DNA of 64,000 nucleotides, from contig CP084166.1 of assembly GCA_021513695.1 (NCBI GenBank), positions 2,048,001-2,112,000 on the forward strand, written 5' to 3'. The notes beneath the pieces were generated by a model. It saw only the letters and a program-made list of their open reading frames with translations. It searched no databases and was not told where the DNA came from. This DNA is from Candidatus Heimdallarchaeum aukensis (GTDB taxonomy: Archaea; Asgardarchaeota; Heimdallarchaeia; Heimdallarchaeales; Heimdallarchaeaceae). The position numbers and the translations under genes are program-made. This document shows, one piece after another, positions 1 through 35,135 of the stretch (the stretch's first letter is position 1; each line of letters opens with the position of its first letter).

Positions 1-1
1 T

Positions 2-3000
2 TTAGTAGGTGTAGGAGAGAGTACAGAGCAGTATATTGCTACAATCAGCAGAGAAGAAAAAACGATTACTTATTCCGCTATTCTAAGTTCAGCAGAGGAG
101 CAAGAACAGTGGAAATATTTCTATATTAGCCTTTATCAGCTTGCGAGACATATTCCTAAAGAATTACTTGTAGATAATTATTCAAATGGAAATAAAGAGG
201 TTGATCTATTAGATGAAAATTACCCTGTTTCTGGTATAATTTCTGATGCAAAAATGGTCGTTAATTATGAAGGTTCATATGTGGAAAAAATCATCCAATT
301 AGAAAAAGGAGCAAATCAAAATCTATACATTTCTGACTTGAAATCTACAATTACTAACATCCATAGCGCATATCCTTACGAAAATGCTTTATCTTCTTTG
401 CCTGAGGAAATAAAATGGAAAAAATATGATGTTCCATTTGATGGGTATATTCCTCTTGATAATGTCTATCTTGATGATTTTGACGGTAGTTCGTATTATA
501 TCTACGATGTAGTGGTTTATGTTGATGCTTCCACTTATTCTAAAGTACATTTAACAGTTGAAACTGAGGGATCTTTTGTTCTTTCTAACCGCTACTCTAT
601 AATATTACAAAAGATGGGTTTTTCAAACGAAGTTGTTTCTACAGTCTTTAGCGCACAACAAGGATATACTCCCTTGTATCTTCACGTTGTTTTTCCAAAA
701 ACAGCTTTTAATCAGAATATACGCATTCAATACATCTCCAATGGAGGAGTGGCTATAAGTGCTGAAAACAATAGAGAAGGAGATGCCATATCAGAGTGGT
801 TGATCTCTACTCCTTTCTATTCGGAAAAAAATGAGGACACCGTTGATTATCTTAATTTTATTTCACAAGTTACACCTATGGAAGGAGAGCGATTCGAAAA
901 AAGAGTAGTAGATTCAGAAGGATTTACCCACACAGAAACAATAGAATTTTCTGAATTCACTTTTCCTGGATTTTGTCCTATCTTAGACTTTGTTCCTCAT
1001 GCTGTTCCTTCAGGTTATTCTGTTATTCTCACTACTACGCTCGATTTCGCCAAAAGTTTGAACACTTCCTTAGTTCTACTTCTAAACAAAGAAAGTGGCA
1101 TAACAATACAATCCTTACTTTGGGATGAGACTCCACTTCTTTACATCAATGAAGGAGTATTTAACGAAATTGACTCCGATTTGGAAAATGGTATGATTAC
1201 TATACCTTTGAATAGTGAAGGGTTAACTGTCAACAGTCTCTTTTCTCCTAAAGAAAACAACCCTAATGAGTATGGTTTCATAGAAAACGACCCTGATTAT
1301 AACTTTCATTTTTCATCTTCTGACCCTTATAGTATAAAAACATCCTCTGTTAACCCTGATTCTGTTATTTTGAACAACAAAGGCATTCACAGAATAGTTA
1401 TCCAATTAACCTTTCCTTCTCCTTATAATACAGATTTTGGAATATATTTGGAAAATGTAGATGATAGCGTGCGAACTGTTTTATCTCCCTCAGATAAAGC
1501 AATAGACTTTCATGCAATCGCACAGAAGAACTTTATTCAATTTGAAAACGATCTTCATCAACCTCAAACTCTTGCTCAATTAGAGAAAAACGAGAATACT
1601 TTATTTAAATCACGATATTTCAAAGATGACTATGGTCAATACCATTCCTATAGAATTTATAGTCTTGGCTTTTCTGATGAATACACCTTAGATAAAGGAA
1701 AGAAATGGAAAATATATGATGGTGATACTGATGATTCTAACGATGTTATCTATGAAAGTACAGCTCACTACAATTGGAAACATGTAATAGGAAAGATGAA
1801 TTTTGCAATTGTTATAGATGAAGGAACTCCACAAGTTTTGCAATTGCCTTTTAATTTTCTAGTAGGTTACATGGTCTTTTGTGATTGGCTAGATACAAAT
1901 GGAGATGGATTAGAAGATACATGTGCTCCTTATATAGGTCTAGCAGACCCCTTAGATGCTAGTTCTACTTACGATGATGTAAAAAAAGGTGTAGTGTATA
2001 ATACAGAGGAAGAGAAGAAAATAAGTTATGATGTTACTGATGAACAACAAGCAGAACTCAAGAATCTTACTGTACGCCAATCGTTGATATCTTCTCTTTC
2101 AACTACAGTAATTACAAAAACAGAAGAAACCATCCCCTTATCCTACACTTCTGACGAAATAGCTGCTATTCAAAACAATGGATTAACTCTTGATCGTTAT
2201 CTTCATTCTTTAATAGAAAATGACTATTTGACCTACTCTGAAGATATTGCAAGAGTAGAAATAACTATTAGTTCTTCAAATAATAAAGAAATTGACCTTG
2301 CTTATGATTATGATAAAGAAATATTGTTCACCCACAGTGTTGATAATGCTACAGGAGAAGAAGAAAAAATAGTCTATGATTTTAGATATGACTGTTTTTC
2401 TGTCCTCACTCCTGATGCTCTTGCTAACGACAACTACAGAGTAGATTTTTATACTTTTAATAATAAACTAAGTCTCTATGATACCGATTTGTATAAACTT
2501 AAAGAAACGCCTAATTCTTACGGATTGTTAGATGATCCACAAACTCTTTCACCTATGGTAGTCTTAGAAAATTATAACTATGAAATAAAAGAAACAGTTA
2601 ATAGTCTTGATTCAAAAGATGAAGAAATTTTAAACAATAGTCCAACAACAATTGTAGACGCTTTTGTTCAAGGATTAAGTCTTTCTCAACTAAGCGTGGA
2701 AATGTATGATGCTGAAATAGAGATGGATTATTACAGTTTAGATCTCTTCTATTCTGTTTTCTTTAATGAATATTTGACTCTACAACAATTCTTCTATTCT
2801 CAAGAAACATTAAATAACAACCAGAATTATCAGTATTATCCTACTGGGACAATCCAATTTGCTAAATGGATTAGTTCAATACTTAACTCCTATATAATCC
2901 AACAATCAGACAAATTATTTGATGAATACCAAAACCGTACTTCTCGATATGATTCAGAGAAAAAAGCTATAGCTGCTATGTCCTTTTTGTTAGACCTTAT

Positions 3001-6000
3001 TATTCCTTATCGCGGATTCAAAACCTACGGTTCGGAACCTAAACCAGAAGAGACTCATCACCCACGTTTCTCTAGTTATGTGGACTTCAAATATAGTCTA
3101 GTTATGTTTTGGGGATTAATCTTAGGTAATAGTGCAGGCTGTGGAATACCTAAAAATTCTGTCTCTCTGTTTAGCGAGAGTGAGAGAACTGGAAAACTCT
3201 TGATGATTGACGAATTATGGGATAAAGCTATTAAACACTGGAACTTGGCAGATAAAAGTAGAATAGATGATCCTAGCGAATATTTGCCCTATACTGACCG
3301 AGCTGTAGTAGACAAAATACTGTTTGACGCCAGAGTAAGAGGAGATGAAGCTATGATCGACTGGATAACAAATGAAGATTATAGTGCTGAGGCTTATTAC
3401 ATGCAACCCTATGGAGTGGATTATTCGATCTATTACTGGTTGAAGGCTTTTACTATTCAACAAGGATATGACCCTTATGCTATCAAGGTTTACACCATTG
3501 AAGAGATGAATAGTCAAGAGAGAGAAGATTTTGACGAAAATTATTTTGTTATAGGCGTTCCTGTTTCCACAATCGAAGACCAATATTTAGAATATAACTG
3601 GTTTGTAAGTCTAGATAAAGAAACACGTGTGCCCACTTCTGCTACATCACAACTAATAGACTTTATCCCTCTTGTATTCGGTCAAAGTTCTAATCCACAT
3701 ATAAGAACAATGATGAAAATAATTAAAAGATTAGGAAATGCAGCAAAAGGAGAAAATTTCGGTTATAATACTTTTAGCATGAGTGAATTCAGCTTAATCG
3801 TTACTTTAGAATTTTTAGTTAATCTTGTAGATATAGGCGCTTTACTTATTGATATCAGAGATGCCTATATAGGAGCTACTCCTTTCATACGCAAAATGTC
3901 GCTCATGCAAATACCAATGGATATACTAGATTTGTTCACTCCAGGACCTTTTTCTCTCGTAGGAAATACAATGAATAAAATTTTCAAATCTATAGTCGGA
4001 GACGTTACCTTAGAAGTAAATAGGATAACAAAAACATTTAATTTACTAGATATTGTACAAAATTTCCCAAAAGGAGAGTGGAAAAGCATTGCTCGAGCAG
4101 CAGGAAAATCAGAACTAATGATCTGGATAGTTGGAGCAGCACAAGTGACTTACCGTTTCTCTAAACTAGCCAATCAATTCTATCAATGGTTCTTCTTCCT
4201 CCCGCAAAAGATTTTCATGAGTAGTTTACAAATAACTTTAGGGTCATTCATGATATTTGCCTCTAAAATGATTTATGCCATCAGAAGAATGGATATCGAA
4301 GAAGCAATGTTGTTAAACATTAAAGCGCAAAAATACTTCAACCAAGGACTAGATGATACCGCTAAAATGACAAGAGCTATATTAAGCCATCCAAAAATGC
4401 TAGCAAGATTTGGAACTGAAGAACTTATAGAACGAGCAAATATAGTAGCAAAATATTACATGAACATTATTATAAAGAAAGTAATGGAATTGGAAGCAAC
4501 ATCAAAAGCAATACTAGAATCGGTTGAAAAGTCACGCTTCTATGTTATGATGGCCTTAAGATATGCTACACATATGTACATGAACACCCCAGGAGGAGTA
4601 GGTATACACTTCTCTCCCAATTTAATTGATAATGAGAAAGAAACTGAAGGAATAAGACATTTCAACACCGTGGATAATATTTTGCCAAAATTAGAATATG
4701 AAATAGCAATGTATTACTGGAAGCATGAATATCTAGCGGATGATGAAAAAATAAAAGAGTATAATAGTGAAAAATTCAATTTCAGAGATGTAGAAAGCGC
4801 AAAAATACATATAACTATAGCTTTTTCATCTATTGCTGCAATACATTCGACACCAGAATCATTCCAAAGATATAAAGAACTACTAGAATACACAGATAAG
4901 AGGTTAATAGAAATAAAAAATGAAAAGGGTGAAAATCTAGAGTATACACCTATATGGTGGATTTTACATTTGCCTGTTGATCCCTCGCTACAAAAACTAG
5001 CCCTTAGCCACATATTTGATGAATCACCTGCAGTTTCACTGCTTCTAAAAGTTCTAATGGTAGAGAAAGGTCTTAACGAAGACTTATTAGAAAATAATAT
5101 CGACGATATAGATGAATACAATAAAGAAGTTCATTCCATTTTAGATCAAATTTTATCTTCTTCCCCCCTAAATATAAGTCATAAAGTCTTTATCCTTGAA
5201 AAAGATGAAAAAGGGAATCATATCTGGAAAGCAAGAATTTTAGATTTGTTAGGGCAATCTGAAGGATCATTAACTAAGTTAAGGACACGAGATGAATATA
5301 TTAAGTGGTCTGTAATCGGTAGAACAGGAATAGACTTGTTAGGCCTTTTCGGAAGTGAAGAATTAAAAAACTATTTTCCCAAAGGAGTAAGAAATGCTTT
5401 AACTGCTAGAAATGATCAAACTTCAATAATCTATGAGCTTATATGTATGGGATTATTAGATTTTAGATTTTATACAGATGATAAAAATGTAAAGGATCAA
5501 TTAAAAATTGATTTTCCAGAGCATGACTTTGAAAAAGAACCCAGTATTAGCATTGCTGAATTAGCTAAAAAATATAGTAAATATGATATTCTAGAATTAT
5601 TTGAAAAAAGTAATTTTATTAGACAGACTCTTATAAGTAATGGAGTAGACGGATTAATACACAGTACAAAAATAGGAAAGTCTCTTTATTCTGTTAAAGA
5701 TTCAACGGGAATATTCAATAAAGCTAATTCAAAAAATATTTTATACTCTGTAGCAGCTGAAAATGCATATATAGGTCATGGAAGTGTTATTTATTATTAT
5801 GATAAGCTACAAGGTGATATTATCACGGATATAGATAATAAATTGATATACAATGCTAGATATTATGATCCTACAGCTTCAAAATCACCTAAACCTTTTG
5901 TTCCAGGCGATGCAATATTACTCTATGATTCCAATGTAAATCGTTATCTGTTTTTAAGAACTAATTTTCCTGAGGACACTATGCTAAATCAAAATCAGAA

Positions 6001-8641
6001 ACTAGATGAATATAGTGGTTTTAAAAGAGAAATTAACGTGTTTTGGTTTCAAATAAACAAAGATACAAATGAGGGAGAGATAGTTTATGATACATTAGAA
6101 CACTATTGTTATGAAAATGAAAAACTGAAGGAAGGAATAAAAGTTGTTGGAACGGAGGATATTTTGCAAGAGGTAGATAAGTTTCATCCAAAGAGAAATA
6201 AAATAAGAAGTAGTCAACCTATAATATCAATAGAAGCAAAGCAAAATGGAGGGAACATAGATTACGTTGTCTCAATGGATGAACAACTTCCTTTATTTAG
6301 GTTTATAGGTGGAGATTATTCAACTGCAACAGAAAAAGACATCAATTTTGCTAGTTTTCTTTACCCAAGAAAACATTCCAACGATATTGTTTTCGGATTG
6401 CAAGATGATAACTTAGATTTTATCGATGAAAAGGGTTTATGGCCTATCCATATGGGTTTAAGCCCAGGAAGGTTTACATACAACGTGCAAAACATATATT
6501 TAGATGAGATTAATTCAGCAAAAGCGTTATTGGATAAATTAGATGAATTAGATAACTTGCCTGTAGTAGAAGTTAAAACAAAGGATAATGAATATATAAC
6601 TCGACCAGCAACAGTTCAGGAAGTAAATCAACAGAGAGTATATGAGTTAATTAGATGGTACTCTACAAGTCAAGTGTATACTTATTATGTGTCTAGTTTA
6701 AATAAAGAAAATAAAGCATTTTTGTGCAGAGCATATCTAGATGATTGGAATGCAGCTAAATCGTTAGGTGAAATCATAGAAATAGCAGAAGATACTAATG
6801 GAAATCTATACCAGAAATATGGTTATGAGAATAAACAAGAATATCTAACCTTTAGAATGAATGTTATTCAAACAATAATAAACGAACAAGAACAGTTCTA
6901 TAAATACAAGTTTAAAGATGAAAGTGATTTAACAAAAGAAGAAAAGTTGGTAATATTTCTAAAAGAACAAAAAGAATTTTTTGAAAGATTACATAATGAC
7001 GCTGCTAAAATAGAGGCATTTCAAGAACCATTTTTTTCAAACTTGAGACTAGACATTAAAGAAGTCGATACATATAATGTACTTAATTATCGCAGTTTAG
7101 AATCGTCAATTGAATTACTTTTATTAAATAGATTTGACTCGTATAATAAGATACACTTATTCGAAGGAGATGTACCTTTTTCAAGAAACCCGATGAAATT
7201 CGGTTTCGATAATGTAATTGTCCAAATAGGTACGAGAGCATTCATAAACAAGGTCAAAGAAGAGGGAATATTAGATTTTGATGAAGATAAAAATTCAGTA
7301 TTAGAACTAGCTAATAAAGTATTTAAAAGAAAAACAGTTATAAAACCATTAATCCGCGGACCAATAAAAGCAAAATCAATTGCTTTTCTCCAACATGAAG
7401 AAACAATGGCTAAACTGAACAATTATAAAACATTGCAAAAAATATCCAAAGAAGAAATAAGGCTCTGGAAACTTTACAACAAAAAATTAGATAATGAAAA
7501 AGGCCATTTGACTGTAGAGCAACTATACGAAATAGAAGAAGAGTTCAACAATATAAATGGAAAAAATATAGTAGGAAAACAAGGAGCAGGGATGACAGTA
7601 ATAGAAGATGGAAACACATATGTTGTAAAAATATACAGTCTCATCAGTGATTTAAGATATAATAACAAAATTCATGCAGGTAGTGAGGCAAATAAGTATG
7701 ATATTGCAGAAAGAGTGTTGGGACTAGCACAACACATAAAGTACGTAGCAAAGGAAGGAAGAATATACATTAATTATGCAATGGCAAACATTCTTTATCT
7801 GATAAAAACACTAACAAACGGTAAAATGGAAATAGATGACGTCCAGAATCTAAGGGACCTGGGAAATCCAAAGGAATTAGAAGCTATACTAGTAAATAAT
7901 TTAGGGGAAGAAAGAACAAAAGAAATACTAAATATTTTAGAAGAAGTAACCATAAGAACGAAAAGAAAAATAAAACAAGGAAAAGATTATTCCATAGAAA
8001 ATATAGAAAAAGGACAATCGTTGGCTTTTCAAATTGGATATGTGGATCTGAAAAATATAACCCCTGAGGTAAGAGGAAAATTAAGGCTACAAGGGATGTT
8101 ATTGAGAGAAATCTTGATGTTACTGGATATAATATATGGACTATATTATACAGGAAGAAATTATATGAAACGCCTAGATATTAATTTAGCGCAAACAACA
8201 GTAATTTTCGAAAAAACAACGGAAGAAGGCAAAACAATACTAAAATTAAAAGACGTAAAAACAAGCACAGAACAAGAAATGAATGGAGAGTTCATATCAT
8301 CACTGAACGATTTCGACCAAAAAACAGCATCAATAATAGAAAAACTGGCTGAAACTAAATATTCATCAGTATTTGGACCAGAATTTATGACTAGAGAACA
8401 ATTAAGAAAATTGGTAGATGAAATAATAGAAGAATATGAGAGTATACTAAAATTGAAAATAAGAAAATTCAATGAAATATTAACTCAAGACGATATGGAA
8501 GTAGAACTAGTAGCAAAGAAATTCAAAATAGAAGAATTGCTAAAAATGCTAACACCTAAAGGATTATGGTCAATGTACGAGCAAAAGAAAAGAAATAATG
8601 AAAAAAGAGGACAAACAAAAATAACAGACTTCCTAATTTAA
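2..8641 (+). CDS. giant hypothetical membrane-associated protein, 5'-partial (ORF open to window edge)
   Basis: One uninterrupted frame. Frame 2 has no stop between nt 2 and the first ATG at 254, so the ORF continues upstream of the window. Hydrophobic helices are encoded at about 3780-4290 (FSLIVTLEFLVNLVDIGALLIDI, ELMIWIVGAAQV, LQITLGSFMIFASKMIYAI). I recognise no catalytic motif. Confidence 0.75.
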   Translation, partial: LVGVGESTEQYIATISREEKTITYSAILSSAEEQEQWKYFYISLYQLARHIPKELLVDNYSNGNKEVDLLDENYPVSGIISDAKMVVNYEGSYVEKIIQLEKGANQNLYISDLKSTITNIHSAYPYENALSSLPEEIKWKKYDVPFDGYIPLDNVYLDDFDGSSYYIYDVVVYVDASTYSKVHLTVETEGSFVLSNRYSIILQKMGFSNEVVSTVFSAQQGYTPLYLHVVFPKTAFNQNIRIQYISNGGVAISAENNREGDAISEWLISTPFYSEKNEDTVDYLNFISQVTPMEGERFEKRVVDSEGFTHTETIEFSEFTFPGFCPILDFVPHAVPSGYSVILTTTLDFAKSLNTSLVLLLNKESGITIQSLLWDETPLLYINEGVFNEIDSDLENGMITIPLNSEGLTVNSLFSPKENNPNEYGFIENDPDYNFHFSSSDPYSIKTSSVNPDSVILNNKGIHRIVIQLTFPSPYNTDFGIYLENVDDSVRTVLSPSDKAIDFHAIAQKNFIQFENDLHQPQTLAQLEKNENTLFKSRYFKDDYGQYHSYRIYSLGFSDEYTLDKGKKWKIYDGDTDDSNDVIYESTAHYNWKHVIGKMNFAIVIDEGTPQVLQLPFNFLVGYMVFCDWLDTNGDGLEDTCAPYIGLADPLDASSTYDDVKKGVVYNTEEEKKISYDVTDEQQAELKNLTVRQSLISSLSTTVITKTEETIPLSYTSDEIAAIQNNGLTLDRYLHSLIENDYLTYSEDIARVEITISSSNNKEIDLAYDYDKEILFTHSVDNATGEEEKIVYDFRYDCFSVLTPDALANDNYRVDFYTFNNKLSLYDTDLYKLKETPNSYGLLDDPQTLSPMVVLENYNYEIKETVNSLDSKDEEILNNSPTTIVDAFVQGLSLSQLSVEMYDAEIEMDYYSLDLFYSVFFNEYLTLQQFFYSQETLNNNQNYQYYPTGTIQFAKWISSILNSYIIQQSDKLFDEYQNRTSRYDSEKKAIAAMSFLLDLIIPYRGFKTYGSEPKPEETHHPRFSSYVDFKYSLVMFWGLILGNSAGCGIPKNSVSLFSESERTGKLLMIDELWDKAIKHWNLADKSRIDDPSEYLPYTDRAVVDKILFDARVRGDEAMIDWITNEDYSAEAYYMQPYGVDYSIYYWLKAFTIQQGYDPYAIKVYTIEEMNSQEREDFDENYFVIGVPVSTIEDQYLEYNWFVSLDKETRVPTSATSQLIDFIPLVFGQSSNPHIRTMMKIIKRLGNAAKGENFGYNTFSMSEFSLIVTLEFLVNLVDIGALLIDIRDAYIGATPFIRKMSLMQIPMDILDLFTPGPFSLVGNTMNKIFKSIVGDVTLEVNRITKTFNLLDIVQNFPKGEWKSIARAAGKSELMIWIVGAAQVTYRFSKLANQFYQWFFFLPQKIFMSSLQITLGSFMIFASKMIYAIRRMDIEEAMLLNIKAQKYFNQGLDDTAKMTRAILSHPKMLARFGTEELIERANIVAKYYMNIIIKKVMELEATSKAILESVEKSRFYVMMALRYATHMYMNTPGGVGIHFSPNLIDNEKETEGIRHFNTVDNILPKLEYEIAMYYWKHEYLADDEKIKEYNSEKFNFRDVESAKIHITIAFSSIAAIHSTPESFQRYKELLEYTDKRLIEIKNEKGENLEYTPIWWILHLPVDPSLQKLALSHIFDESPAVSLLLKVLMVEKGLNEDLLENNIDDIDEYNKEVHSILDQILSSSPLNISHKVFILEKDEKGNHIWKARILDLLGQSEGSLTKLRTRDEYIKWSVIGRTGIDLLGLFGSEELKNYFPKGVRNALTARNDQTSIIYELICMGLLDFRFYTDDKNVKDQLKIDFPEHDFEKEPSISIAELAKKYSKYDILELFEKSNFIRQTLISNGVDGLIHSTKIGKSLYSVKDSTGIFNKANSKNILYSVAAENAYIGHGSVIYYYDKLQGDIITDIDNKLIYNARYYDPTASKSPKPFVPGDAILLYDSNVNRYLFLRTNFPEDTMLNQNQKLDEYSGFKREINVFWFQINKDTNEGEIVYDTLEHYCYENEKLKEGIKVVGTEDILQEVDKFHPKRNKIRSSQPIISIEAKQNGGNIDYVVSMDEQLPLFRFIGGDYSTATEKDINFASFLYPRKHSNDIVFGLQDDNLDFIDEKGLWPIHMGLSPGRFTYNVQNIYLDEINSAKALLDKLDELDNLPVVEVKTKDNEYITRPATVQEVNQQRVYELIRWYSTSQVYTYYVSSLNKENKAFLCRAYLDDWNAAKSLGEIIEIAEDTNGNLYQKYGYENKQEYLTFRMNVIQTIINEQEQFYKYKFKDESDLTKEEKLVIFLKEQKEFFERLHNDAAKIEAFQEPFFSNLRLDIKEVDTYNVLNYRSLESSIELLLLNRFDSYNKIHLFEGDVPFSRNPMKFGFDNVIVQIGTRAFINKVKEEGILDFDEDKNSVLELANKVFKRKTVIKPLIRGPIKAKSIAFLQHEETMAKLNNYKTLQKISKEEIRLWKLYNKKLDNEKGHLTVEQLYEIEEEFNNINGKNIVGKQGAGMTVIEDGNTYVVKIYSLISDLRYNNKIHAGSEANKYDIAERVLGLAQHIKYVAKEGRIYINYAMANILYLIKTLTNGKMEIDDVQNLRDLGNPKELEAILVNNLGEERTKEILNILEEVTIRTKRKIKQGKDYSIENIEKGQSLAFQIGYVDLKNITPEVRGKLRLQGMLLREILMLLDIIYGLYYTGRNYMKRLDINLAQTTVIFEKTTEEGKTILKLKDVKTSTEQEMNGEFISSLNDFDQKTASIIEKLAETKYSSVFGPEFMTREQLRKLVDEIIEEYESILKLKIRKFNEILTQDDMEVELVAKKFKIEELLKMLTPKGLWSMYEQKKRNNEKRGQTKITDFLI

Positions 8642-8664
8642 AAATAGTAAATAAAGAAAAAAAC

Positions 8665-8768
8665 TGGTGCGTCAACCGGGAATTGAACCCGGGCCGTCGA
8701 ATCTCTTCTTGAGGCTTCTAGACGCCATATAATGGAAGTCCGACGTACTACCACTATACTATTGACGC
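8665..8768 (-). tRNA. tRNA-Gly(UCC) with ~30-nt intron at the canonical 37/38 site, CCA encoded
   Basis: Hand-folded cloverleaf. Acceptor GCGTCAA/TTGACGC, D arm GTAT-AGTGGTA-GTAC, anticodon stem TCGGA/TTCGA with loop CT-TCC-A, T arm CCGGG-TTCAATT-CCCGG, then ACCA. Length is 104 nt, so about 30 nt is inserted after position 37. Confidence 0.85.
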
Positions 8769-8984
8769 TTTCTTTGTTTTTTTCTTTCTATTCTTTTGAT
8801 TACCGATTTCTTTTTAACTTTTATGGATTTTGTCTTTTTCTTTTTTTTCTTCTTTCTCTTCTTTTTTTTATTTTTAATTTATGTTTCTCTTCTTTTTTTT
8901 ATTTGTTTAAAATCAATATATTTAAGTAACGTTGTTTTGTTTCTGACTTAAGATATACTAACATTATTTAGAGGAGAATATATT

Positions 8985-9482
8985 ATGAGTTCAGATACAG
9001 TTACTGTTGATCTTTTAGTAGATGGTGGTAAAGCTACCCCTGGTGGTGCTATGGGCCCTGCTCTTGGTCCTACTGGTGTTAATATCAAGCAAGTTGTCGA
9101 TGAAATTAACAAGCAAACTCAAGCTTATAAAGGTATGAAGGTTCCTGTTACTGTTACCGTTTTCAAGAAAACACGTGAGTTTACCCTTTCCGTTGGTATT
9201 CCTCCTGCTTCTGCTCTTATTTTAAAAGAAGCTGGTATTTCCAAGGGTTCTGGTACTCCTAATACTGAGGTTGTTGGTAATATTACTTTTCAACAGTTGA
9301 TCAATGCTGCTAAAGCTAAATGGCCTGATCTTACTGCTGCTACCCTTGCTGCTGCTTGTAAAGAGTTGCTTGGGACCATGGTTTGTATGGGTATTACTTG
9401 TGATGGTAAAGCTCCTCGTGTAGTTCAGAAGGAGATAGATGAAGGAGTATATGATGATATTCTCTCTGAGAATGAGGATTAA
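8985..9482 (+). CDS. rpl11: 50S ribosomal protein uL11
   Basis: The translation DGGKATPGGAMGPALGPTGVNIKQVVDEIN matches the conserved uL11 N-terminal domain. GAGGAG lies about 10 nt upstream of the ATG. Confidence 0.93.
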   Translation: MSSDTVTVDLLVDGGKATPGGAMGPALGPTGVNIKQVVDEINKQTQAYKGMKVPVTVTVFKKTREFTLSVGIPPASALILKEAGISKGSGTPNTEVVGNITFQQLINAAKAKWPDLTAATLAAACKELLGTMVCMGITCDGKAPRVVQKEIDEGVYDDILSENED

Positions 9483-9558
9483 ATTTCGTTATAAACAAAG
9501 TTTATGAATGCTAGTAAAAAATTAAACATGAAGTATATTTAAAATAGAGGTATAGATA

Positions 9559-9753
9559 ATGAGCAAATTTATTAACAATACTCGTTCTTTCGTTATTCGT
9601 AGTAGACGTTTACTTCGTCATGCTAAAAAGCCTAGTCGTCGAGAGCTTTCCATGACTGCTAAAATTACTGCTTTAGGTATTATAGTCATTGGATTAATCG
9701 GTTGGGTTCTTCATCTTATGTTCAACGTTATACTTGACGCTATTAACAAATGA
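9559..9753 (+). CDS. secE: protein translocase subunit SecE / Sec61 gamma
   Basis: 64 aa with a basic N-terminus and one C-terminal TM helix (ITALGIIVIGLIGWVLHLMF). It sits immediately upstream of spt5, as in conserved secE-nusG units. Confidence 0.75.
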   Translation: MSKFINNTRSFVIRSRRLLRHAKKPSRRELSMTAKITALGIIVIGLIGWVLHLMFNVILDAINK

Positions 9754-9799
9754 TATTATTCTTTCTTACGTTTTACTTAAACCTCGTGGAGATGAAATT

Positions 9800-10294
9800 A
9801 TGCCAATATATGCATTGAGAACAGCAATAGGGCAGGAACAATCTGTTTCTGAGTATTTAGCTCGTCGAGCAGATAAACGACCAGAGCTTGATATTAAAGC
9901 TATTTTGGTTACTGGTTCTCTTAAAGGTTATATCTTTATAGAATCAAGTTCAATTGATCACATAGAGTTACTAGTTGAAGGAGTCAGACACGTAAGGAAA
10001 CGTCCTCGTTCTTCTAGAGCTGAAGAGATACCTATTAATGAGCTAGAACATTTTCTTATGCCTCGTCCTGTTATTGAAGGGGTAAACCCTGGTGATATAG
10101 TAGAAATCGTCTCTGGTCCCTTTAAGGGTTCTCGAGCACGTGTCACAGATATTCATTCTGCAAAAGAAGAAGTTACCTTGGAGCTTTTAAGTGTTGATCT
10201 TCAAATACCCGTTACTATTTCTGGAGAATCAATACGCGTTATCGAAAAGGCCGCAACTGAAAAGGAAGAGGAAGAAGGAGAGTATCTTTTATAG
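9800..10294 (+). CDS. spt5: transcription elongation factor Spt5 (NusG homologue)
   Basis: NGN-domain start MPIYALRTAIGQEQSV and KOW motif GDIVEIVSGPFKGSRARV. I placed the start at ATG 9800 instead of the track start 9734, which overlaps secE. Confidence 0.88.
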   Translation: MPIYALRTAIGQEQSVSEYLARRADKRPELDIKAILVTGSLKGYIFIESSSIDHIELLVEGVRHVRKRPRSSRAEEIPINELEHFLMPRPVIEGVNPGDIVEIVSGPFKGSRARVTDIHSAKEEVTLELLSVDLQIPVTISGESIRVIEKAATEKEEEEGEYLL

Positions 10295-10326
10295 ATAACT
10301 AATTATTTTTTGCCTATTTTTCTTTC

Positions 10327-12684
10327 TTGTTCAGAACTTTATTCTTTTTTTGTTCCTTAAGCGTAACCTTTTTTATTTTTCCTCAATACATACTCTGGAT
10401 AGCAAAATTGACCTCCTATATTCCTTTATCTCTTTCTGATGTTGTGCATAAAATAAGTATCTATGAGTCTGAATTGAATTTATTTAATAGTTCCAAGAAA
10501 AAAAACTTTGGTATCTACTATACCCCTGACTTTATAGTTGATTATATTGTTTCTAACGCTTTTCTTAGATATTTATCGAAGTTTGACAGCGATATTCCGC
10601 AATTAGTTAAGAAAATCTTGTCTCTTAACTCAAACCTCTCAAATCATGAAAAAAAGATTCTAATATATTTACACCAACATATTTTTCCAAATATAACTGT
10701 CTGTGATATATCGATGGGTTGGGGTGTCTTCCTCATCCATACATTTGATTACTTATTTTTACTGCGTAAAAACGTATTTATTCTTTTATATTCTCCTTCT
10801 TCTTCTGAATTAGAAGAGGAAAGCAAAAAAATCGCTATAGATATCATTCAGAATAGTCTTTTTGGTGCTGATCTTTCCGAAAAGGCTATAGAATTGGCTC
10901 AATTAAAGTTATTTAAACAAGTAATGGAAGCTCTAAATTGTTCTAATATTAAACTTCCTCGTGCTAATTTTAGACAAGGAAATAGTTTACTAGGTTTTAT
11001 TAATAAAGAATATATTAATGGAAAGGATTCTACAAACTACTGGGTTGAACTTTTTTTATCTAAATTTAAAAAGAAAACATTAATCACAGAAGTTTATAAC
11101 TTTTTAAGAAAACAAAAACTAGTTCATTGGAAATCATTTTTTCCTCAATTGAGAAATCGAGAAGGTTTTGATATTATCGTAGGAAATCCCCCCTACATCA
11201 ATGTTAAACGTTTACCACAAATTGAGAGATATATTTATGCAAGCATTTATGAAACTTATAATTCCAACGGTGATCTATCTAACGTTTTCTGGGAACGTGC
11301 ATTATCAATATTACGTCCCTCTGGAGTTGTTTCTTTTATAGTTCCTCGATACTGGTTAGAGGGTAAAGATAGCAATAAATTGAGATATTTTATCCAGAAG
11401 AATTCTAGAATCCTTGAAATCATGGACTTCCAAAGTAATAGGAGTTTGTTTTCTGAGAGCGAAAAAAAGTTGGGGGTCGATGTTTCTATTGTAACTTTAG
11501 AAAAAAGAAAAGAAAAAGGATTGTTTGACGTTTATATTTTACAAAATTCTGAGAGAATAACCTCTGTCAATAAACATAATTTTCTTGTTAAACAAATCGA
11601 TCAAGAATCCCTCTCCTCTTCAAGATGGAACTTTAATGTTCCTAAACTGGTTGAATATCTCGATGAACATAGTTGTTTAACACTTGGGGGAGATAAAGAA
11701 AATAATATTCCTGGTGTGTGTTATATCGGGAAAGGTTGTTCAACAGGTAATAATTCAATATTTACTTTAAAAAAAATTAAAGATAATATATTTGAAGGAT
11801 ATAAAAAAGTTAAACTTTCTCTCCCTGAAAATGAACAAAGAGTTTTAAGAAGATTAATTAAAAATAGTGATATTACCCGCTATTTTCTTAAAAAACAAGA
11901 GCGATATTGGATATTTCTCAAAGACAAGTCTATTTCAGATTACCCTATGATTGAGCAGTATCTACATAAGTATATCGAGAAACTCAAAGAAACACAAAAA
12001 AAATATGGTAGTAAGAACTTCTTTGACTATGCAGCCTATCGCTCTTTAAATTTAATTGATAGTGTTCCAAAAATCGTAACGCCATATCAGTCTTCAATTA
12101 ATAGATTTGCTTTAGTTAAAAGTAAAGCGCCCCTAACAATTAATGAAACAGATGTTATCACTCTTGTTATCAAACAAGAAATGCGTTCTAAGTTGGACTG
12201 GTTTTTTCTTCTTTCTCTTCTAAATTCTGAACTTTTACATTATTATATTAAACACAGAAACAAAAAAATTTACTATCTCTACGATTTTAGAACAAGTCAA
12301 ATTACCACTCTACCTATTCAAGTCTCTCACAACCAAAAAGTGGTAAGTTTCTTTTCTGAATGTATGTACAGAGCACAAGCACTTCAATTGGATGATAGAC
12401 TATATATGCAAGTCAGATCTAAACTCGAGTTTATAATAAATTCTTTGGTTTTTGAAATTTATCTTAGAGAGAAACTATCTTCAGAATTAGAAGAAGTGTT
12501 GCAAGAAATTGTCTTTACGCAGAAACCTGAAGTCATTAATTTTAAACGCGAAAATGAATTTCTTTCAAAAATATTGTCCTCTCCTACAATTATTAAACAA
12601 CTAAGACAGATTTACTCAAATAAGGAAGTAACCTCTGTAGTTAAAGATTTAAGTTTACCCTATTCAAAATTTATTATAAAGTGA
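10327..12684 (+). CDS. N6-adenine DNA methyltransferase, Eco57I/TaqI-like gamma class, no nuclease domain seen
   Basis: Motif X GIYYTPDFIVDYIV, motif I DISMGWGVFL and motif IV IVGNPPYI are present. The long C-terminal half looks like a target-recognition region. There is no ATG upstream of motif X; the track start is TTG 10327, so the exact start is uncertain. Confidence 0.8.
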   Translation: MFRTLFFFCSLSVTFFIFPQYILWIAKLTSYIPLSLSDVVHKISIYESELNLFNSSKKKNFGIYYTPDFIVDYIVSNAFLRYLSKFDSDIPQLVKKILSLNSNLSNHEKKILIYLHQHIFPNITVCDISMGWGVFLIHTFDYLFLLRKNVFILLYSPSSSELEEESKKIAIDIIQNSLFGADLSEKAIELAQLKLFKQVMEALNCSNIKLPRANFRQGNSLLGFINKEYINGKDSTNYWVELFLSKFKKKTLITEVYNFLRKQKLVHWKSFFPQLRNREGFDIIVGNPPYINVKRLPQIERYIYASIYETYNSNGDLSNVFWERALSILRPSGVVSFIVPRYWLEGKDSNKLRYFIQKNSRILEIMDFQSNRSLFSESEKKLGVDVSIVTLEKRKEKGLFDVYILQNSERITSVNKHNFLVKQIDQESLSSSRWNFNVPKLVEYLDEHSCLTLGGDKENNIPGVCYIGKGCSTGNNSIFTLKKIKDNIFEGYKKVKLSLPENEQRVLRRLIKNSDITRYFLKKQERYWIFLKDKSISDYPMIEQYLHKYIEKLKETQKKYGSKNFFDYAAYRSLNLIDSVPKIVTPYQSSINRFALVKSKAPLTINETDVITLVIKQEMRSKLDWFFLLSLLNSELLHYYIKHRNKKIYYLYDFRTSQITTLPIQVSHNQKVVSFFSECMYRAQALQLDDRLYMQVRSKLEFIINSLVFEIYLREKLSSELEEVLQEIVFTQKPEVINFKRENEFLSKILSSPTIIKQLRQIYSNKEVTSVVKDLSLPYSKFIIK

Positions 12685-12708
12685 TTTTACCGATACAATT
12701 TTCTATTT

Positions 12709-13146
12709 TTAAGTCAATAATTTGCCTAATTTAATAGCTGCTCTTTCTAAATCTAAAAATAGTAAACCAAGTTTTGTGTCTGGTGTAGTGGAAACGGTGA
12801 TAACTGCATTTTCTCCTGCTTGCATTGTAACAATATATCCATTATCTCCTTCAATAAGAATCTTCTTTACTTTTCCTTTTCTTAATTCTGAAACCACACG
12901 TTCCCCTAGAGACAAGCTTGCTGCAGTCATTGCTGAAATGCGAGTTTCATCAATGTTGTCCAACATTAATGAAGCTATGGGTAACCCTTCGACAGAAACA
13001 ACCGCGATATCTAAAATCCCTGGGGACTTGAATCTTAATTCACTTATACAATCAGTTATTTCTTCACTAATTTTGTTTGTTAGAATTCCAAAAGACAATA
13101 TTTTCACTCCTAATTTTTCCTTTGATTGTTCTCCTTTTTTATACAA
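12709..13146 (-). CDS. Roadblock/LC7 (MglB-like) domain protein
   Basis: SPGILDIAVVSVEGLPIASL ... ISAMTAASLSLGERVV ... ILIEGDNGYIVTMQAGENAVITV fits the roadblock alpha-beta-alpha pattern. The antisense ORF 12722-13207 has no such signal. Confidence 0.8.
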   Translation of the reverse strand: MYKKGEQSKEKLGVKILSFGILTNKISEEITDCISELRFKSPGILDIAVVSVEGLPIASLMLDNIDETRISAMTAASLSLGERVVSELRKGKVKKILIEGDNGYIVTMQAGENAVITVSTTPDTKLGLLFLDLERAAIKLGKLLT

Positions 13147-13434
13147 AAATAGAACTTATAAAGACCACAAAATGTTAGTGATAATTCAAAAAGAAAATAG
13201 TTTTTAGCAGTAGGCACTAACCTTTCTTCTAAAGTTTTTGCAATATGTCTGTCTCAACCCTCTCCTTTCATTGTATGTTTAGGTTGAGTTACCAAGTGAT
13301 TAAACTTCCTTTAGTTTTCTCTCTTGAAAGACTGAGTGCGAAAAACTTACGTAAAAAAGTAAATTATATCAATCGACACACTTAAATCATTTAATAATCG
13401 GTTGAGGACAAAGGTTAGATTTTGGTGAATCAGT

Positions 13435-15645: not shown

Positions 15646-16335
15646 ATGGTGCTTTTAGAGATTCTTGTACTCCTTGTAGGATATATCTGTGGCTCGATTC
15701 CCGTAGGTTTCTTAATAGGAAAAATAGGTTATAATATTGATGTAAGAAAACATGGTAGTGGAAATATAGGAATGGCAAATGTAATGCGTCTATGCGGAAA
15801 AAAAGCAGGAATAATGACAATGATAGGTGATATGGTAAAAGGAACAATTGCCGTTCTAAGTGGGAGAATATTAATATGGACAAAAAATTTTGAAGGATTA
15901 GGAAAAATAGGACAAGTAGAATTAACAAATGAAGGGTTATTTCTGTCATTAATAGTCTTTACAACAATAATAGGGCATAGTTTTCCAATATGGTTAAAGT
16001 TTAAAGGAGGGAAATCAGCAAGTGTGGGAGGAGGAGCAATATTAGGAATAAACCCAATAGCATTTGTAATAATAATGAGTTTATGGATTGTTATACTTAA
16101 AAAAACTAAATATACTTCACTTTCAAATTTAGTAGCAGGTATGCTCTATCCTCCATTGTTATGGGTGTTCGCGGGAACTGATCCTTTCTTTAACAACAAT
16201 TGGCAAGCAGCAATAGTAGGAGCAATATGTTTGTTGTTTGTAATCTGGAGACATAGGGAAAATGTGTCAAGGTTAATAAAAGGAACAGAAAGAAAAATTG
16301 GACAAAAAGAAAAAATAGAAGAGAAAAAAGACTAG
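15646..16335 (+). CDS. plsY: PlsY-family glycerol-3-phosphate acyltransferase homologue
   Basis: GSIPVGFLIGK, HGSGNIGMANVMR and GHSFPIWLKFKGGKSASVGGG are the PlsY/YgiH signature blocks. The protein is polytopic membrane. Confidence 0.85.
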   Translation: MVLLEILVLLVGYICGSIPVGFLIGKIGYNIDVRKHGSGNIGMANVMRLCGKKAGIMTMIGDMVKGTIAVLSGRILIWTKNFEGLGKIGQVELTNEGLFLSLIVFTTIIGHSFPIWLKFKGGKSASVGGGAILGINPIAFVIIMSLWIVILKKTKYTSLSNLVAGMLYPPLLWVFAGTDPFFNNNWQAAIVGAICLLFVIWRHRENVSRLIKGTERKIGQKEKIEEKKD

Positions 16336-19797: not shown

Positions 19798-19999
19798 ATA
19801 GAGTTTTTGTCTTGTTGAAATGATAGAATTAAATTGATTTTTAATATTTTTGTTTGTCGTGTCCTCTTATTAATAATGATTTTCTTTATATTCTGTTATT
19901 ATCTTACAGAGATAAATTTAAAAAATAAATGTTAACTCGTTTCTTAATCCATATAGAAAAACTGCTCGTTTCCTACTTTGTTCATTTGCTTAAAATTTC

Positions 20000-20084
20000 G
20001 CGGGGATTGCCGAGCGGTCAAAGGCGCTGGACTTAGGATCCAGTCCTTAGTGGTTCGAGAGTTCGAATCTCTCTCCCCGCACCA
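20000..20084 (+). tRNA. tRNA-Leu(UAG), CCA encoded; integration target
   Basis: GCGGGGA-TT-GCCGAGCGGTCAAAGGC-G-CTGGA-CTTAGGA-TCCAG, then a long variable arm, then GAGAG-TTCGAAT-CTCTC-TCCCCGC-ACCA. Confidence 0.92.
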
Positions 20085-20095
20085 TTTCTTCTTTT
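20057..20095. repeat. attL core (39 bp)
   Basis: GAGAGTTCGAATCTCTCTCCCCGCACCATTTCTTCTTTT, identical to 22887-22925. Confidence 0.9.
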
Positions 20096-20098
20096 ATC

Positions 20099-20106
20099 TT
20101 TATATA
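20099..20106 (+). promoter_or_regulatory. TATA-box-like element upstream of the element ORF
   Basis: TTTATATA is centred about 26 nt upstream of ATG 20128, a spacing compatible with a leaderless archaeal transcript. Confidence 0.35.
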
Positions 20107-20127
20107 TTTCCTTTTCCTTTTTTCTTT

Positions 20128-31607: not shown

Positions 31608-31733
31608 GGGGCATTAGCTCAGCTTGGTTTAGAGCATCCGGCTCATAATTTGCGTCCTAGAAACAGTCTAATTCATTAAGAACGCAAAAGAGCGACCGGA
31701 TGGTCATCGGTTCAAATCCGATATGCCCCACCA
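31608..31733 (+). tRNA. tRNA(CAU), elongator Met or Ile2, with ~49-nt canonical intron, CCA encoded
   Basis: Acceptor GGGGCAT/ATGCCCC, D arm GCTC-AGCTTGGTTTA-GAGC, anticodon stem TCCGG/CCGGA with loop CT-CAT-A then the insert, T arm ATCGG-TTCAAAT-CCGAT, then ACCA. Confidence 0.85.
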
Positions 31734-34967: not shown

Positions 34968-35024
34968 AAAAAAATTTATAAAAGAAGAAAATCACAATTG
35001 CCATAAATTGTGAAAAAACATTGT

Positions 35025-35135
35025 GGGCTGGTAGTTCAGAGGAAGAACGCTTCCTTGGCATGGAAGAGGCCGGGGGTTCAATTGATTTTTCGTGCGCTGT
35101 GTGCGCCGAATCTGAAAATCCCCCCCAGTCCACCA
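35025..35135 (+). tRNA. tRNA-Ala(GGC) with ~35-nt intron in the T loop, CCA encoded
   Basis: Acceptor GGGCTGG/CCAGTCC includes the G3:U70 alanine identity pair. Anticodon arm CTTCC-TTGGCAT-GGAAG. T arm GGGGG-TTCAA[35 nt]AT-CCCCC, then ACCA. Confidence 0.8.

Follow-up and report, generated by a model that had tools for sequence, protein, structure and literature searches.

The left edge of the DNA analysed here, a 64,000-nt stretch of the Candidatus Heimdallarchaeum aukensis genome (contig CP084166.1, positions 2,048,001 to 2,112,000; the whole stretch is called the window below), cuts into a very long open reading frame (ORF), which an initial annotation, made from the letters alone, had set apart as encoding a giant orphan protein. 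To which gene does this frame belong, is that gene intact, and what might so large a protein do? We found that the frame is the C-terminal 52% of a gene, designated here giant B, for a protein of ~5,557 aa, and we assign the gene with high confidence to a previously described tandem pair that fills most of a mobile element known as an aloposon. Because the gene itself has been published, flagging it is not a discovery. Our main observation concerns its architecture, in which a trunk that is nearly invariant between relatives is joined, at one helical block, to a C-terminal segment (the tail) that occurs as strongly diverged alleles.

As the initial annotation had stated, frame 2 of the forward strand is open from nucleotide 2 and has its first ATG at 254; it extends through 2,879 codons to a stop codon at 8639-8641. 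If stops arise at 0.076 per codon, the rate calculated from base composition, the chance of such an open frame corresponds to log10 P ~ -99, and the remaining five frames of the same DNA contain 149-319 stops each, so that the ORF can be taken as real. The predicted product of 2,795 aa had correctly been called a minimum, but it proved to be a large underestimate. The upstream extension proposed for locating the true start was carried out with a public Logan contig, SRR15988958_660 (L006), from an assembly of the window's own strain. This contig aligns with window nucleotides 1-6972 with 0 mismatches and continues upstream to an ATG that lies ~8.03 kb outside the window and has the sequence GGAGG 8 nt before it; the gene rebuilt from L006 and the window encodes 5,557 aa. 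The sequencing runs that carry this locus are SRR15988954, SRR15988958 and SRR15988959. The same ATG begins the ortholog in the closed genome of Ca. Heimdallarchaeum endolithica PR6 (CP084167.1, BioProject PRJNA721962; the contig sequence that carries the giant locus is referred to as L001), where an uninterrupted frame, L001:1970-18595, encodes 5,541 aa. In alignment, residue 1 of the window protein pairs with PR6 residue 2678, and the identity of the best segment, which covers residues 1-2853, is 78%.

L006 is shorter than the window by single bases in homopolymers, namely an A7 run (window 825) and a C6 run (window 5163), and it has a third such deletion in a CCC farther upstream; through these one-base losses, giant B is called there as several separate genes. 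An independent public contig, L003, matches the window with 100% identity over positions 1284-13345, and the frame stays open at both window sites in PR6 and in P0001, a partial ortholog from a Candidatus Hodarchaeales metagenome-assembled genome (MAG) that lies on an 8-kb contig broken at both ends. Because L003, P0001 and PR6 contradict the breaks at the 2 window sites, the deletions are most likely assembly errors and not a sign of pseudogenisation. Furthermore, in a codon-level comparison with PR6 along the whole gene, the ratio of nonsynonymous to synonymous substitution (dN/dS) stayed within 0.1-0.7 in each bin of 200 codons, and the nucleotide differences fell mainly at third codon positions. 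By these measures giant B is an intact coding gene under purifying selection, and a functional gene for that reason, and we found no credible frameshift or stop of the kind that had been foreseen as marking a pseudogene.

Aloposons were described by Wu et al. (2022, Nat Microbiol 7:200; PMC8813620) as mobile elements of Ca. Heimdallarchaeum that integrate at tRNA genes and carry tandem genes for proteins of 3,000-6,000 aa, named Otus and Ephialtes, as well as 4 upstream genes, one of which encodes a MinD/ParA-like ATPase. According to the same report, Ca. H. endolithica and Ca. H. aukensis, 2 species with a genome-wide average nucleotide identity (ANI) of 88% and an average amino acid identity (AAI) of 90%, share a conserved element (Aloposon2 in the former, Aloposon3 in the latter), and a virus/aloposon hybrid, HeimV2, also exists. 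The locus examined here agrees with that description. A second giant ORF (giant A), which lies outside the window and was observed in L006 and in PR6, is located directly upstream of giant B and ends 3 nt before its ATG; the called product of 3,184 aa is a lower bound, as the frame runs off the contig (L006:1-5625; PR6 counterpart, L001:1-1967). Thus, proteins of ~5,557 aa (5,541 aa in PR6) and at least 3,184 aa are encoded in tandem in a Ca. Heimdallarchaeum/Hodarchaeales host, a tRNA gene that differs between the 2 species follows the giants immediately, giant B is homologous to the giant ORF of PR6, a genome of that study, and the element is highly conserved between species. No defining difference from Otus and Ephialtes was found. 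We conclude with high confidence that giant B is the downstream member of the pair and that the window copy corresponds to the element called Aloposon3; that the PR6 locus is Aloposon2 we infer from the text of PMC8813620 and not from coordinates.

The tRNA gene adjoining giant B, which contains an intron and was read as tRNA-Gly(UCC), is oriented with its 3' end toward the giant B stop codon across a gap of 26 nt. In PR6 the arrangement is the same with a different gene, tRNA-Asn(GUU), ~36 nt past the stop of the ortholog. Similarity between the window and PR6 stops at window position 8547, at the 3' end of the giant gene, and tRNA-Gly(UCC) is presumed to be both the integration site and the right boundary of the element. 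Beyond it are host genes for archaeal L11, SecE and Spt5/NusG, and in PR6 a gene for an XPD-like helicase follows the tRNA. The presence of additional copies inside the 64-kb window was considered and rejected.

How the 2 species differ along giant B depended strongly on the part of the gene examined. None of the PR6 flank genes has an ortholog in the 64-kb window (2 PR6 ORFs of 186 aa and 167 aa, considered as Spt5 and L11, are neither), and for that reason the divergence baseline was taken from the published ANI and AAI values and from a 116-nt segment that the 2 genomes share at 85% identity (window 35023-35135, + strand; L001:22320-22435). The latter is a tRNA-like host sequence, with an Rfam tRNA score of 22.8 bits, under the gathering threshold, and no ARAGORN call; it probably represents a tRNA that is either split or interrupted by a non-canonical intron. 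Against the ANI of 88%, the trunk of giant B in the window strain matches that of PR6 with 90-100% identity, which reaches 100% over several kb, and in the distal trunk (nt 2-3763) the amino acid identity is 91-100%. In contrast, the last ~4.1 kb of the gene have a nucleotide identity of 47-82%, and the tail has an amino acid identity of 35-87% per 100-aa bin, being best conserved near aa 2100-2300 and most variable near aa 2400-2500 and 2600-2700 (window numbering). The synonymous divergence (dS) is accordingly 0-0.2 in the trunk and 0.8-1.7 in the tail, with dN/dS below 1 in both.

The partial ortholog P0001 provided a third allele. It is identical in DNA sequence to the window up to nt 3832, shows its first differences at nt 3833-3949, and then continues as a tail allele of its own. 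The breakpoints were specific to the pair compared: P0001 departs strongly from the window at ~nt 4351, while PR6 is near-identical to it over nt 4351-4650 and breaks at ~4651. Downstream of nt 3901 the 3 possible odd-one-out site patterns among the 3 sequences were about equal in number (312/301/356), and their distribution along the sequence was strongly clustered (chi2 = 108.9, 22 d.f., p = 1.8e-13); on the 5' side of ~nt 3900 there was essentially one pattern, with a single exception. The pair-specific breakpoints and the clustering of the patterns therefore argue that the tail comprises several old alleles, which recombination has brought in reshuffled form onto a trunk that spread recently. 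This mosaic of trunk and tail is a new observation. As far as its text and supplements show, PMC8813620 does not describe the mosaic, nor the domain layout, the anchors, the helical block and the sequon depletion reported below.

Two other sources of tail diversity were rejected. The window allele was confirmed by 2 independent public assemblies (L003 and L006), both of which cross the junction between trunk and tail, and it is for this reason not an assembly chimera. Also, the tail is not a diversity-generating retroelement (DGR) target, because substitutions showed no bias toward A (rates by base: A, 0.23; C, 0.42; G, 0.34; T, 0.25) and no template repeat of at least 30 nt was found in window 1-9000; the variable region, moreover, extends over 4.1 kb.

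With the full protein at hand, the composition and predicted topology of giant B could be described from end to end. The only unambiguous transmembrane (TM) segment is an N-terminal anchor at aa 20-38 of the full-length protein, with a Kyte-Doolittle (KD) hydropathy of 2.49 and a crude Hessa sum of -0.5 kcal/mol. Because 6 K/R residues precede this anchor and an acidic stretch follows it, the predicted orientation is N-in, C-out. The trunk (full-length aa 39-3,940) is rich in D, N, S, T and Y, with 8.8% Tyr, little Lys and a net charge of -7.7 per 100 aa, and in composition it resembles giant A. The tail, with 9.6% Lys, 9.5% Glu and a net charge of -2.1 per 100 aa, resembles instead the housekeeping (host cytoplasmic) proteins encoded in the window, for which the value is -2.6. 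The division into a D/N/S/T/Y-rich and a K/E-rich part, separated by hydrophobic helices, had been recognized in the initial annotation and was borne out. Giant A ends in a hydrophobic helix followed by a very basic tail (…ALILSFSLFIGSLTFIRKRTF…KQFRRK), and because of these elements its bulk is predicted to lie outside the cell, anchored at the C-terminus.

The switch in composition falls exactly at the hydrophobic block, and 3 boundaries meet there: the compositional one, the motif kept in distant relatives, and the change in divergence between alleles. Previously placed in mid-protein, the block is actually located at 71-74% of the full length, that is, at about three quarters, because the true length of the protein is about double what had been supposed. 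It carries the motif IDIRD...QIPMDILDLFT, of which distant fragments keep ...DIRD...QIPMDI.D.FT. As for the cluster of membrane helices proposed at this site, a conserved hydrophobic helical block is indeed present, but its TM nature is unproven. Only one 19-mer exceeds a KD of 1.6 (window aa 1265-1283, LIVTLEFLVNLVDIGALLI, KD 2.21), and this helix has a high hydrophobic moment, with E, N and D on one face; a second, weaker segment is found at aa 1409-1427 (KD 1.43). The crude Hessa sums of the 2 helices, +3.2 and +4.6 kcal/mol as compared with -0.5 for the N-terminal anchor, make them appear only marginal TM candidates. Residues K/R are enriched after helix 1265-1283, and the pair RR follows helix 1409-1427.

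A further feature of both giants is a scarcity of N-x-S/T glycosylation sequons, which amounts to a depletion of 35-80% when local shuffles and the reversed motif serve as references. The trunk contains 24 sequons (37.7 expected) and giant A contains 11 (23.1 expected). The tail is depleted as strongly as the trunk, with 2 observed as compared with 9.6 expected (p = 0.002; reversed motif, 7), and the PR6 tail has 3 where 8.7 were expected. Pooled host proteins of the window, with 36 observed and 30.4 expected, showed no depletion.

The absence of other landmarks was in accord with the initial annotation. The 5,557 aa contain no Walker A, HExxH or CxxC motif and 16 Cys in all, and neither self-BLASTP of the full protein nor a DNA repeat search (repeats of at least 30 nt in window 1-9000) detected an internal repeat. 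Internal repeats and paralogy of the 2 giants were rejected; giant A and giant B show no similarity to each other, and the available part of giant A gave no family matches. Profile searches with Pfam (E up to 10), NCBIfam, PHROGs and PADLOC, for which we used the window protein, the N-terminal half of the PR6 protein and the available giant A, gave nothing credible, and a sequence search of the PDB was empty, so that the earlier statement of no recognizable domain stands. The adhesin, S-layer and cytoskeletal families that had been named in advance as conceivable relatives produced no matches in the profile-library scans.

Word-indexed and profile searches of 5.8 billion proteins returned 5 sequences only: P0001; P0002, which is part of the same gene cut short by a frameshift; and 3 short fragments, P0003, P0004 and P0005. 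An exhaustive HMMER search of 1.84 billion representatives, with window aa 1251-2450 as the query, gave 3 matches, P0001, P0003 and P0004. P0003 is a short, artefact-like fragment. P0004 is a 304-aa fragment from a marine-sediment metagenome with 40% identity over window aa 1255-1343, and P0005, from the profile search, is a further fragment of the same distant lineage. The helical block is the only region of giant B that P0004 and P0005 match, and because they share it the giant family reaches beyond Heimdallarchaeum, where it has been assembled only as fragments. The 2 fragments are encoded on the short contigs L007 and L008 (JGI 3300003143 and 3300039051), which have nothing but the junction block in common with giant B. 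Scans of metagenomic and viral contigs with a profile of the conserved block and with the whole protein found no relatives, and IMG/VR had none. The only substantial relatives are thus P0001 and the PR6 locus (CP084167.1), and related genomes, in which conservation was to be sought, yielded the 5,541-aa PR6 ortholog and the partial ortholog P0001. With regard to database homology giant B is a true orphan, as had been claimed; it is not one in the literature, where the family already bears the names Otus and Ephialtes (PMC8813620). The literature that we searched contains no proposal for the function of the giants, and later papers that cite the aloposon work add nothing on this point.

Structure prediction followed by Foldseek searches, also suggested at the outset, was carried out with little return. 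AlphaFold2 gave a predicted local distance difference test (pLDDT) score of 30 for window aa 1201-2400 and of 48 for window aa 1195-1535 when 5 sequences were used; neither model was usable, although the second was all-alpha at low confidence. When the pLDDT-48 model was compared with the PDB by Foldseek, insignificant helical hairpins alone were retrieved (best E, 0.6).

On balance, we think that giant B is probably a surface protein, exported and anchored, whose C-terminal part is a polymorphic specificity module, a reading in which the surface display and the specificity role of the module are the parts that we infer. By this proposal, the ~5,557-aa protein would be inserted through its N-terminal signal anchor, with the N-terminus inside the cell, and its trunk of ~3,900 aa, which is acidic, Tyr-rich and non-repetitive, would be shown on the cell surface; giant A, held by a C-terminal TM helix and basic tail, would be displayed beside it. 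The conserved amphipathic helical block would link the trunk to the C-terminal module of ~1,450 aa. That module may be the determinant of specificity, its ancient alleles having been recombined onto a recently spread and near-invariant trunk, and its diversity may be kept by selection, for example through the recognition of partner cells or elements, or through exclusion during spread of the element.

Certain aspects of the data weigh against this proposal. Only 3 tail alleles (window strain, PR6 and P0001) were compared, one of them from an 8-kb MAG contig. Structural support is absent, as the AlphaFold2 models were unusable and the fold search was empty. Because dN/dS never exceeds 1, diversifying selection is not demonstrated, and recombination with other copies of aloposons close to the integration end could have produced the mosaic as a neutral side effect. 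The clues to the location of the tail also conflict with each other: a composition like that of the host cytoplasm and the basic residues after helix 1409-1427 favor the cytoplasm, whereas the sequon depletion and block helices that are non-inserting on the crude Hessa sum favor export.

In several respects a displayed giant B would resemble the giant repetitive surface adhesins of bacteria and archaea (Bap/SiiE/LapA-type, or proteins with Ig-like or cadherin-like repeats), which are likewise very large, acidic, Cys-poor, predicted to be exported, and anchored in the membrane or at the surface. It differs from them in having no detectable repeats in 5,557 aa and no Ig, cadherin or Big domain, and in being encoded by a mobile element as one of a pair.

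The conflicting clues leave room for a receptor-like topology, which is the picture that the initial annotation implied and which we consider possible but doubtful. Here the block would contain an odd number of TM helices, the trunk would form an extracellular loop between 2 anchors, and the tail would be cytoplasmic, meeting there such fast-evolving intracellular partners as products of the ParA/partition genes of the element, host defence or competing aloposons. The sharp switch at the block to values like those of the host cytoplasm (net charge -2.1, as compared with -2.6 for the host and -7.7 for the trunk) is consistent with this topology, as are the one block 19-mer with a KD of 2.21, the distribution of basic residues after both helices (K/R after 1265-1283, RR after 1409-1427), and the conservation of the block in distant relatives. 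Yet helices with crude Hessa sums of +3.2 and +4.6 are predicted not to insert on their own, and the best of the helices combines its E/N/D face with a high hydrophobic moment. Sequons, moreover, are depleted in the tail as they are in the exported parts, which would be unexpected for a cytoplasmic domain, and variation in the cytoplasm combined with an invariant ectodomain would be the reverse of the usual pattern of surface proteins.

A different way to reconcile the clues, which we judge unlikely, is that everything beyond the N-terminal anchor is extracellular, that the amphipathic block, with its conserved acidic residues, is a conditional membrane-insertion (translocation) module, and that the tail is cargo for delivery into an adjacent cell, by analogy with the logic of CdiA, Rhs/teneurin, MARTX and the large clostridial toxins. 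Giant B would then belong to an archaeal, element-encoded contact-dependent system, a suggestion to which we give equally little weight, in which the block delivers the tail, or exposes it, to neighboring cells for allele-specific recognition, exclusion or antagonism. Such a polymorphic effector would account together for sequon depletion of the exported type throughout the protein, for block helices that are candidates for non-constitutive TM segments with a conserved E/N stripe, for the cytoplasm-like composition of the tail, for the conserved trunk with a polymorphic, recombining C-terminus, and for carriage of the gene by a mobile element. The resemblance to the polymorphic toxins (CdiA, Rhs/YD-repeat/teneurin, MARTX, large clostridial toxins) indeed includes giant size, frequent location on mobile DNA, a conserved N-terminal trunk followed by a polymorphic and recombining C-terminus, and a helical, hydrophobic segment that precedes the variable part. 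However, giant B has no sequence homology to any of their domains, no repeats and no demarcation motif: scans of the full length at permissive thresholds with Pfam, NCBIfam and PADLOC detected no FHA, RHS/YD or MARTX repeats, no toxin or peptidase, and no pretoxin motif (VENN, PxxxxDPxGL). Nor does an immunity-like gene follow giant B, as its stop is only 26 nt from the tRNA at 8668, beyond which lies host L11; in PR6 the tRNA is likewise followed by the XPD-like helicase gene. The alleles of the tail are homologous over their full length, unlike swapped cassettes of unrelated sequence, and 1,450 aa would be very large for a translocated cargo. Giant B differs further in its archaeal host and in having an N-terminal TM anchor in place of a two-partner, type VI or type I secretion (TPS, T6SS or T1SS) signal, and structural support is lacking here also (AlphaFold2 pLDDT 30 and 48; empty fold search). 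If this account were true, a mechanism like that of CdiA, Rhs, teneurins or the large toxins, though unrelated to them in sequence, would be present in the archaeal lineage closest to eukaryotes.

It is quite improbable, in our opinion, that the giants are structural components of a virus-like transfer particle, with the variable C-terminus as a receptor-binding tip. Conservation of the N-terminal part combined with a mosaic, variable C-terminal part is classically seen in tail fibres, and phage tail fibres and receptor-binding proteins share with giant B a conserved proximal part and a mosaic distal part that is exchanged horizontally. Receptor-binding tips, however, are mostly beta-rich, and the K/E-rich, partly helical tail of giant B is atypical of them; giant B is also ~10 times larger than tail fibres. 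The existence of HeimV2 as a virus/aloposon hybrid (PMC8813620) lends the idea some plausibility, but there were no PHROGs matches and no IMG/VR relatives, and the N-terminal signal anchor of giant B, together with the C-terminal TM helix of giant A, indicates insertion into the host membrane. Finally, we regard as very improbable that the C-terminal divergence is an artefact of a chimeric strain assembly or the decay of a pseudogene: the 3 single-base frameshifts in L006 and the short, doubly broken contig of P0001 might suggest this, but those frameshifts are all one-base homopolymer losses (the 2 in the window being contradicted by L003, P0001 and PR6), L003 and L006 independently extend, with 0 mismatches, from the trunk through the tail and the tRNA into the host genes, the PR6 genome is closed, and the diverged part itself shows dN/dS of 0.1-0.7 with an excess of third-position differences.

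Aloposons devote most of their DNA to 2 giants that are annotated without function, in an archaeal group (Heimdallarchaeum/Hodarchaeales) that is among those proposed to be nearest to the eukaryotes. The layout reported here, with anchors at opposite ends of the 2 partners, a near-invariant and recently spread trunk, one helical junction and a recombining tail of ~1,450 aa, can now be tested; it marks the tail as a candidate determinant of specificity and the junction as a candidate functional hinge. The tail allele can also serve as a marker for tracking aloposon lineages in populations. Coordinates are collected in Table 1.

Table 1. Features of giant B and its 3' flank in the window (nucleotide positions count from the first letter of the window)
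Feature	Position	Strand	Basis or remarks
C-terminal 2,879 codons, with stop, of giant B (Otus or Ephialtes), the downstream giant gene of the aloposon	2..8641	+	Open frame, PR6 ortholog, L006, dN/dS, literature
Distal conserved trunk, window aa 1-1254	2..3763	+	Acidic, Tyr/Asn/Ser/Thr/Asp-rich, non-repetitive, predicted exported
A7 homopolymer	819..825	+	L006 one base shorter, apparent frameshift; frames of P0001 and PR6 open here
Hydrophobic/amphipathic alpha-helical block, window aa 1255-1430	3764..4291	+	Hydropathy, match to distant fragments, low-confidence all-alpha AlphaFold2 model
Polymorphic C-terminal module (tail), window aa 1431-2879	4292..8638	+	Lys/Glu-rich, mixed alpha/beta at low confidence, three alleles
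C6 homopolymer	5158..5163	+	L006 one base shorter, apparent frameshift; L003 100% identical to window here
Intron-bearing tRNA, read as Gly(UCC)	8668..8768	-	Rfam tRNA 59.3 bits; 32-nt insertion in anticodon loop

The remainder of the window, which has a GC content of ~32%, contains housekeeping genes, including those for L11, SecE, Spt5/NusG and Roadblock/LC7, and a few of its features deserve mention. Just past the L11-SecE-Spt5 genes, at 10327-12684 (+), is a gene for an Eco57I-like type IIG restriction-modification protein (Eco57I, N6_Mtase and TaqI_C domains), followed at 12709-13146 (-) by the gene for the Roadblock/LC7 protein, which is of a eukaryotic-signature type typical of Asgard archaea. 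A 967-aa frame called mechanically at 19978-22881 (+) is a sizeable orphan with no Pfam match; because its 5' end overlaps tRNA-Leu(UAG) at 20000-20084, its real start lies farther downstream. Two tRNA genes with long introns, the 101-nt gene at 8668-8768 (-) and a 123-nt gene at 31608-31730 (+), were detected by Rfam and not by ARAGORN. Finally, position 15646-16335 (+) encodes a glycerol-3-phosphate acyltransferase of the bacterial PlsY type, here in an archaeal genome.

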